A DNA stretch of 64,000 nt from Myxococcota bacterium (GCA_039028615.1 JBCCHT010000027.1:96001-160000); one strand, 5' to 3'; numbered from the stretch's first letter, positions 58,774 through 64,000 are shown. Translations and numbers: made by a program. The notes: generated from the letters alone by a model not told the origin.

Positions 58774-59580
58774 TCAGCCCACGGGGGGAAAGCACGGGAA
58801 CTTGATCACCCCGTCGACCTCGCCCCAGTTGAGGCTGACGGGCAACGACCGCATTCCGAGCGGGGCCAGGATGCGATTGACGCTGTCGATGTCGGCGGGG
58901 GTGAGATAGCCGCCGCCCGGCGTCGCGTATTCGGAGCTCACCACCAAGCCTCCACCCGCGTCGGTGAACTCGAGCACGGTCTGCAGCTCGGCGTTGCTCG
59001 GCTGCTCGCCTCCGTCGAGGTAGGCCGACTCCTCGAAGTAGATGACCACGTCGTAGTCGTCGGCGAGGAGCGCGGGGGCGCCGACGTAGCGGGCCGGGAG
59101 GTGGATGGAGGCGGGGAACACGTGGTCGCCGAGCTCGATCTCGTCGGCCCAGCCGAAGGCGAGCAGCCGGGGCTCGGGCTCGTACCCACCCGCCAGCCAC
59201 GGAAGCAGGGGGCACTCGGTTACTTCTTGCAGAGGCAGCGAGCTGTCGGCGGCGGCGATGAAGCGGCCCCGGCCGAACGTGCCCATCGCATACACGACGC
59301 TTCCCTCGAGCTCCGCGGTGGCGAACACCTGCTCGCCCGTGACTTCGAGCTGCCCCGACTGCATGGAGTCGATTTGCACCGAGCAATCGACACACTCCCC
59401 CGGGCCCGCAGGGCCCACGTCGAGCACTGGCATGGAACCCGAACTCGAGGGGTCGTCCTCGCCGGTACTCTGCGACGGGGTCGCGGGGCCCGTGCTGGCG
59501 GCAGGGGGCAGCATGGGCTCGGAAGCGACCGTGCAGGCGACACTCGCGAGTAGCAGTGAACCGACGACGAGCCGCACCAT
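58774..59580 (-). CDS. Lipoprotein with class-I GATase-like (DUF4350-type) segment
   Basis: SVAC lipobox; YDVVI...ELQTVLEFTDAGGGLVV..E...NRILAPLG. Confidence 0.6.
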   Translation of the reverse strand: MVRLVVGSLLLASVACTVASEPMLPPAASTGPATPSQSTGEDDPSSSGSMPVLDVGPAGPGECVDCSVQIDSMQSGQLEVTGEQVFATAELEGSVVYAMGTFGRGRFIAAADSSLPLQEVTECPLLPWLAGGYEPEPRLLAFGWADEIELGDHVFPASIHLPARYVGAPALLADDYDVVIYFEESAYLDGGEQPSNAELQTVLEFTDAGGGLVVSSEYATPGGGYLTPADIDSVNRILAPLGMRSLPVSLNWGEVDGVIKFPCFPPVG

Positions 59581-59752
59581 CCCATTTCCTTGGTGTCGGG
59601 ACCGCTGCGGAAGGTTTCGCCGCCGATGCGACCAAGATGGTCACCCACTGCACCGAAAAATGGTTGATGATCGGAGTCGATCGAGTTGGCGGTCCGAACT
59701 ATGCGACGATGGCCATCGTACTGAAGTCACCACTTCACCCTCGTACGTCGAC

Positions 59753-62700
59753 ATGAACGACGACCTCAGCAACCAGAGCACGTTGGCGGGAGACCTCTCC
59801 ACCGAAGTCCCCGCCACGGAGCATTCCAAGGGGCACCGCGTCGAGGTCGAGAGCCCGGCGCAACTCGTCGGTCGACGCTACGGTCGCTACGTGGTGCTCA
59901 GCGTGCTCGGTCACGGTGGGATGGGCATCGTCCTCGAGGGCTATGACGAAGAGCTGGACCGTCGGGTCGCGCTCAAGCTCCTGCACGACCATCTGGGCAG
60001 GCGGCACCGGGACCGCCTGCGACGGGAAGCCCAGGCGATGGCGAAGCTCTCGCACCCCAACGTCGTGCAGGTCTACGAGGTCGGGGACGCCGACGGCCAG
60101 ACGTTCGTAGCAATGGAGCTGTTGCGGGGCCCGACGGTACGGTCGTGGATGGAACAGGAGCCACGGCCGGGCTGGCGAGCGAGTGTCGAAGTGTTCGTGC
60201 AGCTGGGAGCGGGCTTGGCCGCCGCGCACGAGCGAGACTTGGTGCATCGAGACTTCAAGCCGGACAACGCGATGCTCGACGAGGACGGGCGGGCTCGGGT
60301 GCTCGACTTCGGGCTGGTGCGGCAGTGGGGGGACGAGGATTTCGAGTCTTCGACCGCCGCGGACTCCAACGGCTCGGACTCGATGTCCGCTCGAGAAGGC
60401 TCGCTGACCAAGACGGGAGCGCTGCTGGGGACGCCCGCGTACATGTCCCCCGAGCAAATGAGCGGAGCCGCGGTCGATGCTCGAAGCGACCAGTTCAACT
60501 TCTGCGTGGCGCTATACGAGGCGGTGTACGGCGAGCGGCCCTACGAGGGGGACTCGGTGGCGCAATTGATCACGTCGATGGAGCGCGAGTCGTTGCGCGG
60601 GGCGCCCCCCAAGAGCAGCGTGCCCGCGCGGCTGCGCCGGGTGTTGAGCCGCGGGCTGGCCTACGATCCGGCGCAGCGCTGGCCATCGATGGAAGCCCTG
60701 CTCGCTGAGCTGCGGGTGCAGATTGCCCCACGAGGTCGGGCCCGTACCACGCTCGCGGTGGGAGTGCTGGCGCTCGGCCTGGGAGGAAGCTGGGCGTTTG
60801 CGGAATATGTGCAGGTCAAGGACCGGTGCACGGGCGCGGAGGCGAAGCTGGACGGGGTCTGGGACGATGAACGCCGGGCCACGGTGAAGACCGCGATCCT
60901 GAATACCGCGCTGCCCTATGCACCGGACACCGTGGAGCGAGTGGAGGCGCGGCTGGATGCCGTTGCCGCGGCGTGGGTGGACAAGCACACCGAGGTCTGC
61001 GAGGCGACCGCAGTGCGGCAGGAGCAATCGGCTCAGACGCTGGAGCTGCGGATGGGGTGCCTGCAACAGCAGGCCTCTGAAGTCCGCGCCGCGGTCGACG
61101 TGCTCGCCAATGCAGACGCCACCGTGGTGCCCAACGCGATCACCCTGGCGTCCGGGTTGCCCGATGCCAGCCGATGCGACGACGTCGAGGCGCTGCGGGC
61201 TACGGTTGCGCCGCCCGAGCCCGCGAAGCAGGCCGAGGTGGAGGCGCTGCGCGGGCGCCTACAAGAGCTACGCGCGGAGCAGGACGCGGGACGCTACGCG
61301 GTCGCATTGAAGCAGATCGAGCCGGTGGTGGCCGCAGCCACAGACCTGGACTATGCGCCGCTGGTGGCCGAGGTCATGCAGCGACGGGGATCGCTGCAGC
61401 GAAGCAACGGTCACCACGACGCCGCGGAGAAGGACCTGCGCAAGGCCTACGCACTCGCGATCGAGCATCAACACGACGCCGCCGCCCTCGACGCGGTCGC
61501 GGAGCTGACCTTCGTCGTCGGCAGTACGATGGCCCGGTTCTCCGAGGGCCGGGTTTGGGGCGAGACGGCGATGGCCCACGCCCGACGGAGTCGGGACGAC
61601 GAGGAGCTCGCATCCGCCTTCCACACGATGGGCGCCGTGCTCTACACCGAGGGCGACTATGAGGGCTCCATGCGCCACAACGAACGCGCAGTGGAACTCG
61701 TGGAGCGGGCACGGGGCCCCGAGCATTTCGAGGCCGCGCCCTTCGTCAGCAGCATCGGCAACGCGCTCACTGCGATCGGAAAGCACGAGGAAGCCACGCA
61801 GCAGTACGAGCGAGCGCTTCGCATTCTCGAGCAGGCACTGGGTCCAGATCATCCCACCGTCGCCGGAACTCTGAGCAACCTGGGGGTGGCGCTGCGCCGT
61901 CTCGGCGAACTCGACCGGGCCAAGGCGGTGACCGAACGCGCACTGAAAATCCGCGAGGATTCCCTCGGATCCGATCATGCTCTCACGGCCGGTACGTTGG
62001 CCAATTTGTGCGTGCTGCTCAATTTGCGGAATGACAACGAGCAAGCGCGGACCTGCCACGAGCGCGCGCTCCGGGCCACCGAGAACGCCCTGGGACCCAC
62101 GCACCCCGACGTCGCCCATTCCGCGACCAACCTGGCCATCACGCTGCAGCGGCTCGGTAAGGCCGAGCAAGCCGAGCCGCTGTTCGAGCGAGCATTGCGG
62201 GTCAAGGAGGAGGCACTGGGTCGCGAGCATCCCGATGTCGCCCTCGCCCTGGGCAACCTGGGCATGGTGCACTGGGGCCGCGGGGAGTATGCGAGTGCTC
62301 GGCCGCTATACGAACGAGCGCTGGCGATTCTCGAAGCAGAGCGGGGACCCGAACATCCGCAGGTTGCATCGACCGTGTCCACGCTCGGGGAGGTCTACCA
62401 ACGGCAAGGGGACGATGTGCGGGCACGGCAAATGCACGAGCGCGCGCTGGCGATCATGGAGAAGGCGCTCGGACCGGACGATCCGAAGCTGGCCAAATAC
62501 ATGCACAGCCTCGGGATGGTGCTGCTCGATCTGGGCGAGCGGGACGAGGCCAGGGCGTATTGGGAACGGGCGGTCGGGCTATCGCCGGAGCCGGAGAAAG
62601 ACCCCGTGGACCTGGCGTATCCGCTGGTGGAGCTGGCGAAGCTCGCGGTCGCCGACGGGCAGATGTCACAGGCGCGTGGGTACGCCGAGCGGGCAGTGGC

Positions 62701-62920
62701 GATTCGGGAGAAACACGAGGCGGACGCGATGCCGTTGGCGATCGCCCGGTTCACGCTGGCGCGAGCCCTGTGGGTAACCCCGGGGGAACGAGTGCGGGCG
62801 CGAGCGCTGGCGCGAGAGGCTCGGGAAGTGCTCGAGCCAAGCGAAGAGCATGACGAGCAGGTGCAGGAGATCGAGCGTTGGCTGCAGCGCCACGGCTCGC
62901 CGGCCAGAGCCCGAGGCTGA
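59753..62920 (+). CDS. Ser/Thr protein kinase with TM and TPR repeats
   Basis: GHGGMG, VALK, HRDFKPDN, DFG, GTPAYMSPE; about nine 42-aa TPRs (LGPDHP). Confidence 0.93.
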   Translation: MNDDLSNQSTLAGDLSTEVPATEHSKGHRVEVESPAQLVGRRYGRYVVLSVLGHGGMGIVLEGYDEELDRRVALKLLHDHLGRRHRDRLRREAQAMAKLSHPNVVQVYEVGDADGQTFVAMELLRGPTVRSWMEQEPRPGWRASVEVFVQLGAGLAAAHERDLVHRDFKPDNAMLDEDGRARVLDFGLVRQWGDEDFESSTAADSNGSDSMSAREGSLTKTGALLGTPAYMSPEQMSGAAVDARSDQFNFCVALYEAVYGERPYEGDSVAQLITSMERESLRGAPPKSSVPARLRRVLSRGLAYDPAQRWPSMEALLAELRVQIAPRGRARTTLAVGVLALGLGGSWAFAEYVQVKDRCTGAEAKLDGVWDDERRATVKTAILNTALPYAPDTVERVEARLDAVAAAWVDKHTEVCEATAVRQEQSAQTLELRMGCLQQQASEVRAAVDVLANADATVVPNAITLASGLPDASRCDDVEALRATVAPPEPAKQAEVEALRGRLQELRAEQDAGRYAVALKQIEPVVAAATDLDYAPLVAEVMQRRGSLQRSNGHHDAAEKDLRKAYALAIEHQHDAAALDAVAELTFVVGSTMARFSEGRVWGETAMAHARRSRDDEELASAFHTMGAVLYTEGDYEGSMRHNERAVELVERARGPEHFEAAPFVSSIGNALTAIGKHEEATQQYERALRILEQALGPDHPTVAGTLSNLGVALRRLGELDRAKAVTERALKIREDSLGSDHALTAGTLANLCVLLNLRNDNEQARTCHERALRATENALGPTHPDVAHSATNLAITLQRLGKAEQAEPLFERALRVKEEALGREHPDVALALGNLGMVHWGRGEYASARPLYERALAILEAERGPEHPQVASTVSTLGEVYQRQGDDVRARQMHERALAIMEKALGPDDPKLAKYMHSLGMVLLDLGERDEARAYWERAVGLSPEPEKDPVDLAYPLVELAKLAVADGQMSQARGYAERAVAIREKHEADAMPLAIARFTLARALWVTPGERVRARALAREAREVLEPSEEHDEQVQEIERWLQRHGSPARARG

Positions 62921-63050: not shown

Positions 63051-63079
63051 TTGACGAGGCCCCGCTCGTGCCCTAAAGA
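63051..63079 (+). promoter_or_regulatory. Candidate sigma70 promoter of leader/tRNA unit
   Basis: TTGACG-17 bp-TAAAGA; AT-rich AATTTATTT upstream; -10 imperfect. Confidence 0.5.
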
Positions 63080-63114
63080 CAAAGAACCGCGTCACTTCGA
63101 CGCGTGCATTCGTC

Positions 63115-63192
63115 ATGAACCGCTCCGCGCAGACTCATCGCCACCATCATGTGGTGATCGTGCATTCGATGCACGATATCTGCCCGTGTTGA
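63115..63192 (+). CDS. Putative His-rich leader peptide MNRSAQTHRHHHVVIVHSMHDICPC
   Basis: ATG...TGA, 25 codons, 6 His; between candidate promoter and tRNA genes; overlaps hairpins; no clear SD. Confidence 0.45.
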   Translation: MNRSAQTHRHHHVVIVHSMHDICPC

Positions 63193-63313
63193 GCGGTTCC
63201 CGGCGTTTGTACCCAACTTGATGGACTTCGCCGGGCCTCTCGGCACGGGCGACCCCTCACCCATTCGTTGGCCATGTCGACCGAGCCCCATTTGGCTCGA
63301 AGACGGGGCCCAC

Positions 63314-63385
63314 GGGGTCGTGGCGCAGTGGTAGCGCACCCGGTTGTCAGCCGGAAGGTCGCGGGTTCGAATCCCGTCGGCCCCG
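63314..63385 (+). tRNA. tRNA-Asp (GTC)
   Basis: Cloverleaf: GGGGTCG/CGGCCCC, D GCGC/GCGC, anticodon GTC 63346-48, TTCGAAT loop, G73; CCA not encoded. Confidence 0.9.
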
Positions 63386-63500
63386 CCGAGTCGTTGTCTG
63401 TCGACTCTCACCATCTTCTTACTCAACCACTCAACGACAAACACATCATGAACAACATCGAGCAATCCAACGGCGAGGACGACTCGACCCATCATCCGAT

Positions 63501-63577
63501 GGCGGGTGTAGCTCAGTAGGTAGAGTGCCGGAATGTGACTCCGGTGGGCGCCGGTTCGAGCCCGGCCACTCGCCCCA
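63501..63577 (+). tRNA. tRNA-His (GTG)
   Basis: G-1, GCGGGTG/CACTCGC, C73, encoded CCA, anticodon GTG 63535-37, TTCGAGC loop. Confidence 0.92.
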
Positions 63578-63618
63578 CAAATTCCTCCCCATGCGGTCTC
63601 ATCGGCTGGCCACCTCGG

Positions 63619-64000
63619 CTAGATCCGAGGACCGCGAGACTTCGACCGGTCGTAGATGACCTCGGTCACCGCGTAGGTCGGCGTGTACTCCAGCACGTTC
63701 ACCACCGGGTTCTTCGCGCCCGAGAGGCCGTACACGGTCCTCAATCCCCGCAGCAATACATCGAGGTACAGGCGTTCGTAGAGGTTCTCGGGGTAGGTGA
63801 TCCGTCCGAGATTCCCGTTTTGGTTGCGCTCCAAGTGCTCGCGCTCGGTGCCGCGACGGAGCGCCCTCCAACGCTTCGATGCACCCCTGGACAGCCTACC
63901 GGGCGAAAGCACGGCAAAGATGACCCGATACAGCGGTCCTGAGAGCGTCGCGCGTAGGTTGCGTTCGCCCCAGTCGAGATAGTCCTCATCGCTCCCGAAG
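63619..64000 (-). CDS. Myxobacterial hypothetical protein (DUF2378-like), 5'-truncated
   Basis: Frame open from window end: FGSDEDYLDW...SGPLYRVIFAVLSPGRLSRGASKRWRALRRGT...YPENLY. Confidence 0.6.
   Translation of the reverse strand, partial: FGSDEDYLDWGERNLRATLSGPLYRVIFAVLSPGRLSRGASKRWRALRRGTEREHLERNQNGNLGRITYPENLYERLYLDVLLRGLRTVYGLSGAKNPVVNVLEYTPTYAVTEVIYDRSKSRGPRI

Follow-up and report, generated by a model that had tools for sequence, protein, structure and literature searches.

Why should a reading frame rich in His codons stand in front of tRNA genes? At one locus of a myxobacterial genome, a promoter-like motif is followed by a short open reading frame (ORF) with six His codons and then by genes for tRNA-Asp and tRNA-His. 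Leader-peptide attenuators control the his and trp operons and, with multivalent leaders, thr and ilv, and pheM-pheST is an example for an aminoacyl-tRNA synthetase. The principle of leader-peptide attenuation of amino-acid operons is set out in PMC1183508; for this and the other published systems, the comparisons made here draw on sections of the papers cited. Those leaders govern genes for biosynthesis or for synthetases, whereas the genes regulated here would be those of the tRNAs, the sensed molecule itself. In the open-access literature, as far as the sections covered go, tRNA genes are not described as being under the control of cognate-codon leaders or of mini-ORFs that overlap them.

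A first-pass annotation of this DNA had suggested that the His-rich leader regulates the two tRNA genes, with slow decoding of His codons or general ribosome stalling as the signal and Rho or RNA processing as the means of control. In this study, we analysed the window, a stretch of 64,000 nucleotides to which all window coordinates refer, together with the genome that contains it (G000) and its relatives. What the leader senses, and how the signal might reach the tRNAs, are the questions considered below.

Structure of the locus

The promoter-like motif TTGACG-17-TAAAGA occupies positions 63051-63079 of the + strand, with TTGACG at 63051-63056, a spacer of 17 nt and TAAAGA at 63074-63079. A strict sigma-70 scanner does not list this candidate, the -10 element of which is without the last T. 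The same motif class is found ahead of all eight spare-tRNA clusters of the genome (spacers 16-19, read by eye), and T[TA]GAC-N17-20-TA lies upstream of 26 of 26 related metagenome leaders in a set chosen with no regard to promoters; of 5000 random windows, 9 have it. Folding places a hairpin in the 5' UTR upstream of the leader start (63088-63104, +), similar to hairpins ahead of many sister leaders. The leader ORF (MNRSAQTHRHHHVVIVHSMHDICPC; 63115-63192, +) has 25 codons and is a class I leader, with the pattern M-[NKE]-R...C-stop. His occupies codons 8, 10, 11, 12, 17 and 20 (four CAT, two CAC), and the single Asp is codon 21, five codons ahead of the stop. At genome usage, the probability of at least six His in 24 codons is 1.7e-5 and that of at least four CAT among six is 0.013, CAT making up 18.6% of His codons genome-wide; the upstream kinase gene has 12 CAT versus 26 CAC. 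The region 63085-63313 folds with z = -5.6, and 0 of 200 shuffles are equally stable.

The unit downstream of the leader consists only of tRNA-Asp(GUC) (63314-63387, +; anticodon GTC in the DNA, CCA not encoded) and tRNA-His(GUG) (63502-63577, or from 63501 with G-1, +; anticodon GTG in the DNA, C73, CCA encoded), both identified by ARAGORN and Rfam; the long ORF that follows lies on the other strand. The unit contains no protein gene and so none with a ribosome-binding site to hide, as a translational attenuator of the ermC type would have. A hairpin of -25 kcal/mol follows tRNA-His (63593-63635, +), with two T in the next 8 nt and no U-tract. The only Rfam matches in 63051-63600, at E values up to 5, are the two tRNAs, with no T-box or other cis-element among them. 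The upstream gene (59105-62920, +) encodes an ordinary Ser/Thr kinase with TPR repeats that appears unrelated to the module. A convergent ORF (63619-63999, -), without a Pfam match, overlaps the 3' hairpin of the tRNA unit and runs off the window.

The promoter candidate, the leader ORF, its His and CAT counts, the two hairpins on the His codons and the long and nested stems of the first-pass annotation were all recovered base for base. It had missed helix A, an alternative hairpin at 63228-63252 and a mini-ORF at 63448-63519, each of which is described below.

Codon matching between leaders and tRNA sets

The genome of 12.3 Mb and 68% GC is that of a marine myxobacterium; named records that share the leaders of its relatives include Paraliomyxa miuraensis, and on this ground it is placed in the Nannocystaceae. 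It has eight spare-tRNA clusters, and a short ORF and a promoter-like motif accompany every one. These modules are Asp/His (MNRSAQTHRHHHVVIVHSMHDICPC, window 63115-63192, +), Met/Phe (MERFTTTTPMNTERMFGMGFMFGTC), Ser/Tyr (...SSSSYAYVLGSRSSSRC), Arg/Leu (...GGRLRLRLRVGGRRLLRVA), Cys/Gln (...GCQQQCACVCG) and, with their own leader ORFs, Thr/Phe/Asn/Lys, Ser/Ala/Trp/Cys/Val/Ile and Pro. Together they cover 18 of the 20 amino acids, Glu and Gly being absent. The tRNA-Asp and tRNA-His of the window are second copies, the housekeeping genes being located on contigs C85 (Asp) and C22 (His). Supernumerary copies alongside a full housekeeping set, a feature of L-arrays, are thereby present.

Leader content corresponds to the tRNAs that follow. 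When the leaders of G000 are assigned to tRNA sets in every possible way, the true assignment comes first of 40,320 and every leader fits its own set best; its rank is 1 of 720 in the same-genus genome G002, 1 of 6 in G031 and 2 of 24 in G005, a genome in which an overlapping wrong frame was once taken. Since the loci were chosen by similarity and are kin, not independent, the argument rests mainly on these within-genome tests. Among 61 clusters examined, a fixed rule gave a leader in 54 and none in seven. In the 54 rule-picked leaders, a cognate codon is found in 148 of 153 cases with the tRNA present versus 543 of 927 with it absent, and the rare U/A-ending form accounts for 92 of 144 cognate codons versus 50 of 213 non-cognate ones. 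Exchanges of tRNA genes are followed by exchanges of codons: the leaders of Ser/Trp clusters, which have tRNA-Trp in place of tRNA-Tyr, contain W and no Y; a Pro cluster without tRNA-Tyr has, unlike its sisters, a leader without Y; and one Tyr cluster has both W and Y. The dose of Asp varies likewise, with three Asp codons ahead of two tRNA-Asp genes in G002 and one codon ahead of one gene in G000. The leaders are thus codon-matched to the tRNAs of their own modules, and their content follows tRNA gain and loss across relatives. Enrichment in codons for the sensed amino acid is also a feature of classical attenuators.

The pattern HxHHH...H..H..CxC of the window peptide resembles metal-binding peptides, and the His/Cys-rich product could in principle be a metal sensor or act in trans, or the ORF could have arisen by chance. 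Sister leaders that begin and end with the same motifs abound in the amino acids of their own tRNAs, not in His, and His codons go with tRNA-His: among complete class I clusters, 5 of the 5 that have this gene contain them (mean 3.4), versus 8 of the 25 that do not have it (mean 0.4). These readings are largely refuted and hardly credible. The proposal that a His-rich leader regulates the tRNA genes is, on the other hand, strengthened by the His/Asp match, by the spare status of the tRNAs and by seven sister modules matched to other amino acids.

Conservation and range of the leader

Four of the eight leaders of G000, that of the window included, form one family (class I) that shares the M-[NKE]-R...C-stop pattern and a fixed DNA motif around the stop. 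The same-genus homologue in G002 (MNRSTTDSHHHMRDHVVFVHSMHDICPC) differs by a 9-nt in-frame indel and precedes tRNA genes for Asp, Asp and His, so that the leader is kept in frame in a relative, a check that the first-pass annotation had named. In 73 genomes of the family, the motif has 27 matches; 18 are in frame, 15 of these 18 lying ahead of tRNA clusters, and none of the nine out-of-frame matches does so. A species collection gave ten of 39 motif matches in frame with tRNAs. Among contigs from metagenomes and a viral collection, 42 of 43 in-frame matches lead tRNA arrays versus 0 of 3 out-of-frame matches (duplicates included), the one exception being at a contig edge. Seven distinct leader lengths occur, every one in frame; because the lengths vary and the frame is nevertheless kept, we argue that the leader is probably translated.

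Outside the family, the motif was matched 20 times in 400 further genomes of the phylum; 19 of these matches have no tRNA within 1.5 kb and one (L100) is near two tRNA-Ala genes. A class-wide DNA search, among the 30 loci fetched, found leader-led arrays inside the family only, and plasmid and phage collections returned generic tRNA matches only. The leader is carried by L090, labelled 'Gemmatimonadota', and by L283, L285 and L286 of the viral collection; transfer to another phylum or to phages is not claimed from these, L090 and L283 sharing flanking genes of myxobacterial look and L285 and L286 duplicating metagenome leaders. A genome-wide scan for leaders by promoter motif and composition was discarded as too noisy (121 candidates). 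Two unpublished genomes, G651 and G663, are the basis of no claim. A cultured strain with the system is P. miuraensis SMH-27-4 (L074 and L096), described as hard to culture in the section cited of PMC9960870.

Several modules in relatives have contents of their own. In genus g17, L184-L190 contain up to 13 alternating Leu/Tyr tRNAs and a Pro tRNA behind the leader ...LLLLPALLAPLPPYLRLPYLPR. L188 (G031:C45) has seven Glu and three Asn tRNAs with their own Glu/Asn leader, G000 having no Glu module. In L181 (G005:C101) and L182 (G003:C347), of the same genus, an EF-Tu gene lies between the leader ORF and spare tRNA-Pro genes, and the hairpin downstream of these leaders resembles that of the Arg/Leu class. 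In G000, a 538-residue ORF (C27, about 169508-171124, -; L199:3508-5124) directly follows the Ser/Ala/Trp/Cys/Val/Ile array; it has no Pfam match and falls near TROVE/Ro60-like clusters in a protein atlas (score 0.98), which hints at RNA repair.

Predicted RNA switch of the leader

The leader RNA can form alternative sets of predicted helices. Helix A pairs the start region (63118-63125) with the stop region (63191-63198; 63118-63198, +) and is the predicted untranslated state, with p = 1.0 in the absence of a ribosome. Two coding hairpins lie on the His codons (63137-63177, +): H1 at 63137-63158 (8 bp, one G.U) and H2 at 63157-63177 (8 bp). Helix B (63182-63193 with 63239-63250; 12 bp, two G.U) encloses helix C (63199-63205 with 63229-63235; 7 bp), and the pair (63182-63250, +) is the predicted stalled-ribosome state. 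The alternative hairpin D (63228-63252, +), after which there is no U-tract, is exclusive with B and C. In constrained folding, a ribosome on codons 2-11 gives B and C with p of about 0.96-1.0, and hairpin D has p of 0.89-0.95 when the RNA is untranslated or the ribosome is at the stop and is absent with a ribosome on His10. Helix A would thus compete with B and C, and a ribosome on His8-11 is predicted to flip the switch. With a lone ribosome on His17, His20 or Asp21, helix A is predicted to re-form, and B and C to persist only with the start occupied by a second ribosome. In 26 of 30 complete class I clusters, the fifth codon ahead of the stop is a cognate one, and a stall at this codon would, in the model, just leave the region of helix B free.

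The comparative evidence for these helices is uneven. Across 17 leaders, 85.5% of the cells of helix A are paired versus 19-54% in slid controls. Covariation, which the first-pass annotation had proposed as a test of its stems, exists in helix A, in which four pairs change on both sides, but is modest, as 61 of 500 shuffles reach the same count. Against codon-order shuffles, 31 of 43 class I leaders have a hairpin with z < -2 at the position of H2, over the last regulatory codons. Among 17 class I leaders, an early stall is predicted to yield helix B in 13 and helix C in 15; neither forms in any of the 17 when the ribosome sits at the stop. In untranslated RNA, helix A is dominant in only 9 of 17 leaders, so that equilibrium folding is not a clean switch everywhere, and hairpin D exceeds p = 0.5 in only 3-4 of 17. 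The mutually exclusive, ribosome-set helices of classical attenuators are therefore present here by prediction, and not cleanly in every leader. Leader runs that are not cognate (Val, Ile and Met at the window locus, Thr in a Met/Phe leader) may serve the pairing.

Any stall on codons 2-11 is predicted to give B and C, and the leaders might accordingly be general sensors of translation stress (ribosome antibiotics or any stall), with the codon match secondary, like the spare tRNA operon of Anabaena. Translation inhibitors induce the spare arrays of Anabaena, according to the sections cited of PMC8421152 and PMC10272220, and a spare EF-Tu lies under such a leader in relatives. For a sensor of this kind, eight leaders that track tRNA gain and loss, rare cognate codons and mini-ORFs for single tRNAs would all be needless, and we consider it improbable. 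Between the two signals offered by the first-pass annotation, codon-specific sensing is favoured, and general stalling is less likely as the main signal because leader content follows the tRNA set.

Mini-ORFs that enter tRNA genes

A second tier of ORFs is found between the tRNA genes. At the window locus, a mini-ORF (63448-63519, +) with a weak ribosome-binding site reads MNNIEQSNGEDDSTHHPM up to the tRNA boundary and then AGVAQ-stop, its frame entering tRNA-His. Its His-His pair (His15/16) ends 6 nt before position +1 of tRNA-His, two codons short. The homologue in G002 is of equal length and keeps the HHPM end, with synonymous His and Pro changes. A Shine-Dalgarno-like site with an ATG is present in 63 of 113 inter-tRNA spacers; the reverse strand has 23 and shuffled spacers 16 +/- 3, and any such start occurs at only 2 of 40 housekeeping tRNAs. 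Counting distinct stretches, an ORF that enters the tRNA with a cognate codon at most 9 nt before +1 precedes 8 of 9 His, 23 of 29 Asp and 14 of 19 Ile tRNAs, 45 of 57 in total, where shuffles of the same design gave 0.6, 1.5 and 0.8. The gap to +1 is mostly 6-7 nt. Such mini-ORFs are rich in the amino acid of the next tRNA, for example MNDDNDDDADDTY running up to tRNA-Asp and MEDNSESDIGPIIY up to tRNA-Ile. This second tier is absent or rare ahead of Thr, Leu, Pro, Ser and Lys tRNAs. It is not typical of four unrelated plasmid arrays, in which cognate mini-ORFs occupy 0 of 3, 2 of 12, 0 of 4 and 2 of 13 long spacers.

A possible counterpart ahead of the tRNA-Asp of the window (63221-63334, +; ...LEDGAH, then GVVAQW-stop past the boundary), called with low confidence, looks decayed from its sequence. 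The relative L074 has at this position a Shine-Dalgarno site and an ORF ending ...MSDDGDPH at the boundary; the window ORF has no Shine-Dalgarno site, and the equivalent frame of G002 has no ATG.

The second tier is more plausibly local and post-transcriptional, because internal termination would need all upstream sensors to be stalled together. Folding of tRNA-His was uninformative on this point, as the energy model produced no cloverleaf whether or not a ribosome was placed on the RNA.

Anticodon loops of the spare tRNAs

The spare tRNAs differ from their housekeeping counterparts where they are read. The anticodon loop is UUGUCAG in the spare tRNA-Asp versus CUGUCAC in the housekeeping copy, and AUGUGAC versus UUGUGGU in tRNA-His. 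In total, 19 of 27 spare tRNAs have an anticodon loop unlike the housekeeping one, with differences at positions 32, 37 and 38. G37 is replaced by A in 4 of 6 spare tRNAs (His, Leu-CAG, Arg-ACG and Gln-UUG), and A37 or A38 is missing from several spare copies. The genes trmD and miaA are present in the genome; by the usual determinants, the spare copies would need fewer modifications at position 37. Phage tRNAs with altered anticodon loops have been proposed to evade anticodon nucleases (PMC10264068, in the section cited), and they resemble the spare tRNAs in a loop that differs from the host set at positions 32, 37 and 38. The spare tRNAs, by contrast, are cellular and chromosomal-looking and have sensors attached.

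Other features of the tRNA complement were recorded. The spare tRNA-Pro(GGG) at G000:C1 247395-247471 has, as called, C for U at position 33. tRNAs with A at position 34 are rare in bacteria; ARAGORN calls such tRNAs in L071/L132 (tRNA-Thr AGT), L072 (tRNA-Ile AAT) and G000:C9 (tRNA-Leu AAG). L289 (G000:C23, about 145400-146834) contains one more class II synthetase gene, of Asp/Asn type, and the ORF upstream of it, MDHDDDGDDRRGRA, closely resembles the poly-Asp mini-ORFs ahead of tRNA-Asp. This extra synthetase might charge the spare tRNA-Asp, which has G38 and not C38, presumably an identity position in tRNA-Asp.

Terminators, Rho and RNases

How a stalled ribosome might act on the tRNAs depends on the machinery available. 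As the first-pass annotation had stated, no U-tract terminator follows the window leader on the + strand, which sets it apart from classical attenuators. Hairpin and U-tract lie together in 2 of the 54 spacers behind leaders versus 16 of 40 housekeeping tRNA 3' ends, and the 3' ends of the spare clusters in G000 have a U-tract in 0 of 8 cases.

Upstream-ORF attenuators that depend on Rho are exemplified by tnaC and mgtL. The topAI uORF is another, from the section cited of PMC12121999, and the leaders here are similar in that a uORF would sense stalling and no intrinsic terminator comes after it. They differ in that the family lacks Rho and the spacers show no C-richness. Rho is over the cut-off in 0 of 73 family genomes, near-complete assemblies of 12-13 Mb included. 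In G000, two Rho profiles are negative, PF07497 is absent and tblastn with two myxobacterial Rho proteins found weak matches only (best 26% identity, E 1e-6); Rho is present in 3 of 5 genomes of the same class. The C-rich, G-poor composition of a loading site is lacking, the median C-G skew being 0.02 over 54 spacers and 0.12 at the window locus. A Rho-dependent gate is rejected on both counts, and the Rho-based control that the first-pass annotation had allowed for falls with it. Such a family-wide apparent loss of Rho is unusual for large GC-rich genomes; one survey, in the section cited, counts Haliangium ochraceum as a Rho-less myxobacterium (PMC11347177).

Candidate gates based on RNases and on pairing were also considered. 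A torpedo mechanism by RNase J is rejected, as the genome has no RNase J match. RNase E/G is present. An RNase E cut is normally one step in tRNA maturation, and for this reason decay is not an obvious gate for a whole operon. Pairing of the leader with the acceptor strand of the first tRNA is rejected as a general gate (4.11 versus 4.07 for the null overall); it is enriched in 26 related Thr-first metagenome arrays only, with p of 0.11-0.63 at the window locus, and is a minor lead.

With neither Rho nor a U-tract, the gate would be either ribosome-controlled tRNA maturation or a transcription stop of an undescribed sort, and either would be new. In the second case, the codon-specific sensor would be the same and the first tier would be transcription attenuation, hairpin D terminating without a U-tract through NusG/NusA or a substitute for Rho, and B and C acting as antiterminator. 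The four-segment layout (A, B/C, D) follows the logic of a classical attenuator, a multivalent leader that must gate up to 20 tRNAs would do so most simply by transcription control, and the missing U-tracts at the 3' ends of all eight spare clusters imply that U-less stopping or trimming must happen somewhere. Against this, the RNA after hairpin D, CCCCUCACCC, would make a strong hybrid, ordinary U-tract terminators are in use elsewhere in the genome, at the housekeeping tRNA ends, D is well predicted in a small minority of the 17 leaders, and the second tier is left unexplained. We regard termination at D as an unlikely but serious alternative.

Discussion

On this analysis, the spare tRNA genes have a genuine sensor system that is conserved throughout the family; its second tier would, if confirmed, be a new kind of control. 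Leader-peptide attenuators share with it a short ORF of cognate and often slow codons, exclusive helices set by the ribosome and multivalent leaders, on the sections cited. They differ in that here there is no U-tract, eight modules serve 18 amino acids and mini-ORFs run into tRNA genes. In Anabaena PCC 7120, translational stress acts through the repressor TrcR to induce the cryptic trn operon (PMC8421152 and PMC10272220, sections cited); the sections cited of PMC8421152 make no mention of a leader or of attenuation for this array. L-arrays and the Anabaena operon resemble the present clusters in containing supernumerary tRNA genes, some beside genes of RNA-repair type, that are likely stress-induced. 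The Anabaena array is tightly packed and under a DNA-binding repressor, with cognate mini-ORFs in 0 of 3 long spacers, whereas the spare tRNAs here are distributed over widely spaced modules, each with ribosome sensors, rather than in a single packed array. Module size ranges from two genes at the window locus to up to 20 genes with wide spacers in relatives. At its sensing end, the system behaves as a multivalent leader-peptide attenuator does; on the output side it lacks what marks the classical, the Rho-dependent and the translational class, as described in the sections cited, and we file it under none of them.

Our preferred reading, which we judge slightly the better side of an even chance, is that a stall on cognate codons in the two ORFs raises the amount of spare tRNA that matures, probably because the precursor then escapes unfolding and decay and not because a terminator is lifted; both the rise in yield and the direction of control are what we infer. 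In the first tier, a leader that is untranslated or read to its stop would adopt helix A and/or hairpin D, and a ribosome held on His8-12 would free the stop region for B and C, which may be the permissive state of the whole precursor. The leader would then serve every tRNA of the module as an OR gate, probably at an RNase E/RNase P step. In the second tier, a ribosome that finds His-tRNA would read on into tRNA-His and unfold the precursor, and one stalled on His15/16 would halt at the 5' edge of the tRNA, which could fold and be cut out, giving specificity for single tRNAs. By the size of its footprint, a ribosome stalled there would abut the 5' end of the tRNA. To extend the post-transcriptional reading from the second tier to the first is about an even call, its main rival being U-less termination at D.

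The sign of the control could also be the opposite: a stalled ribosome might block RNase P at the 5' end of the tRNA, or B and C might be inhibitory, spare tRNA being withheld in starvation so that the charged fraction stays high. RNase P contacts a few leader bases, which are within the size of a ribosome footprint, and with a gap of 6-7 nt a ribosome on His15/16 would cover the bases that the enzyme needs. Spare arrays are silent in normal growth and stress-induced where tested (PMC8421152), altered anticodon loops suit replacement tRNAs, and the classical cognate-codon leaders are all switched on by stalling (PMC1183508), each as given in the sections cited, all of which makes this reversal highly improbable. 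In the preferred reading, the signal would be loss of working tRNA, by cleavage or under-modification, more than amino-acid famine, because extra tRNA cures only the former and the spare anticodon loops are altered.

At its broadest, the system would be a homeostat of the tRNA pool in the Nannocystaceae, of an undescribed kind: ribosomes would audit nearly every tRNA species, for 18 of the 20 amino acids, on codon-matched test ORFs, translation would destroy each pre-tRNA unless stalled two codons short of it by a shortage of the tRNA concerned, and maturation of each loop-altered spare tRNA on demand would proceed without terminator, Rho or repressor. We put this forward tentatively, as a proposition a little short of even. 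Synthetic tRNA sensors specific to a codon could be built directly on the 6-7 nt rule of the mini-ORFs. Should tRNA cleavage or lost modification be the trigger, the system would be a targeted defence against anticodon nucleases, as used in phage defence and among the toxins of rival cells. Its layout gives a direct test of why bacteria retain spare tRNA arrays. In these bacteria, the sensed molecule would switch on its own replacement, species by species and genome-wide.
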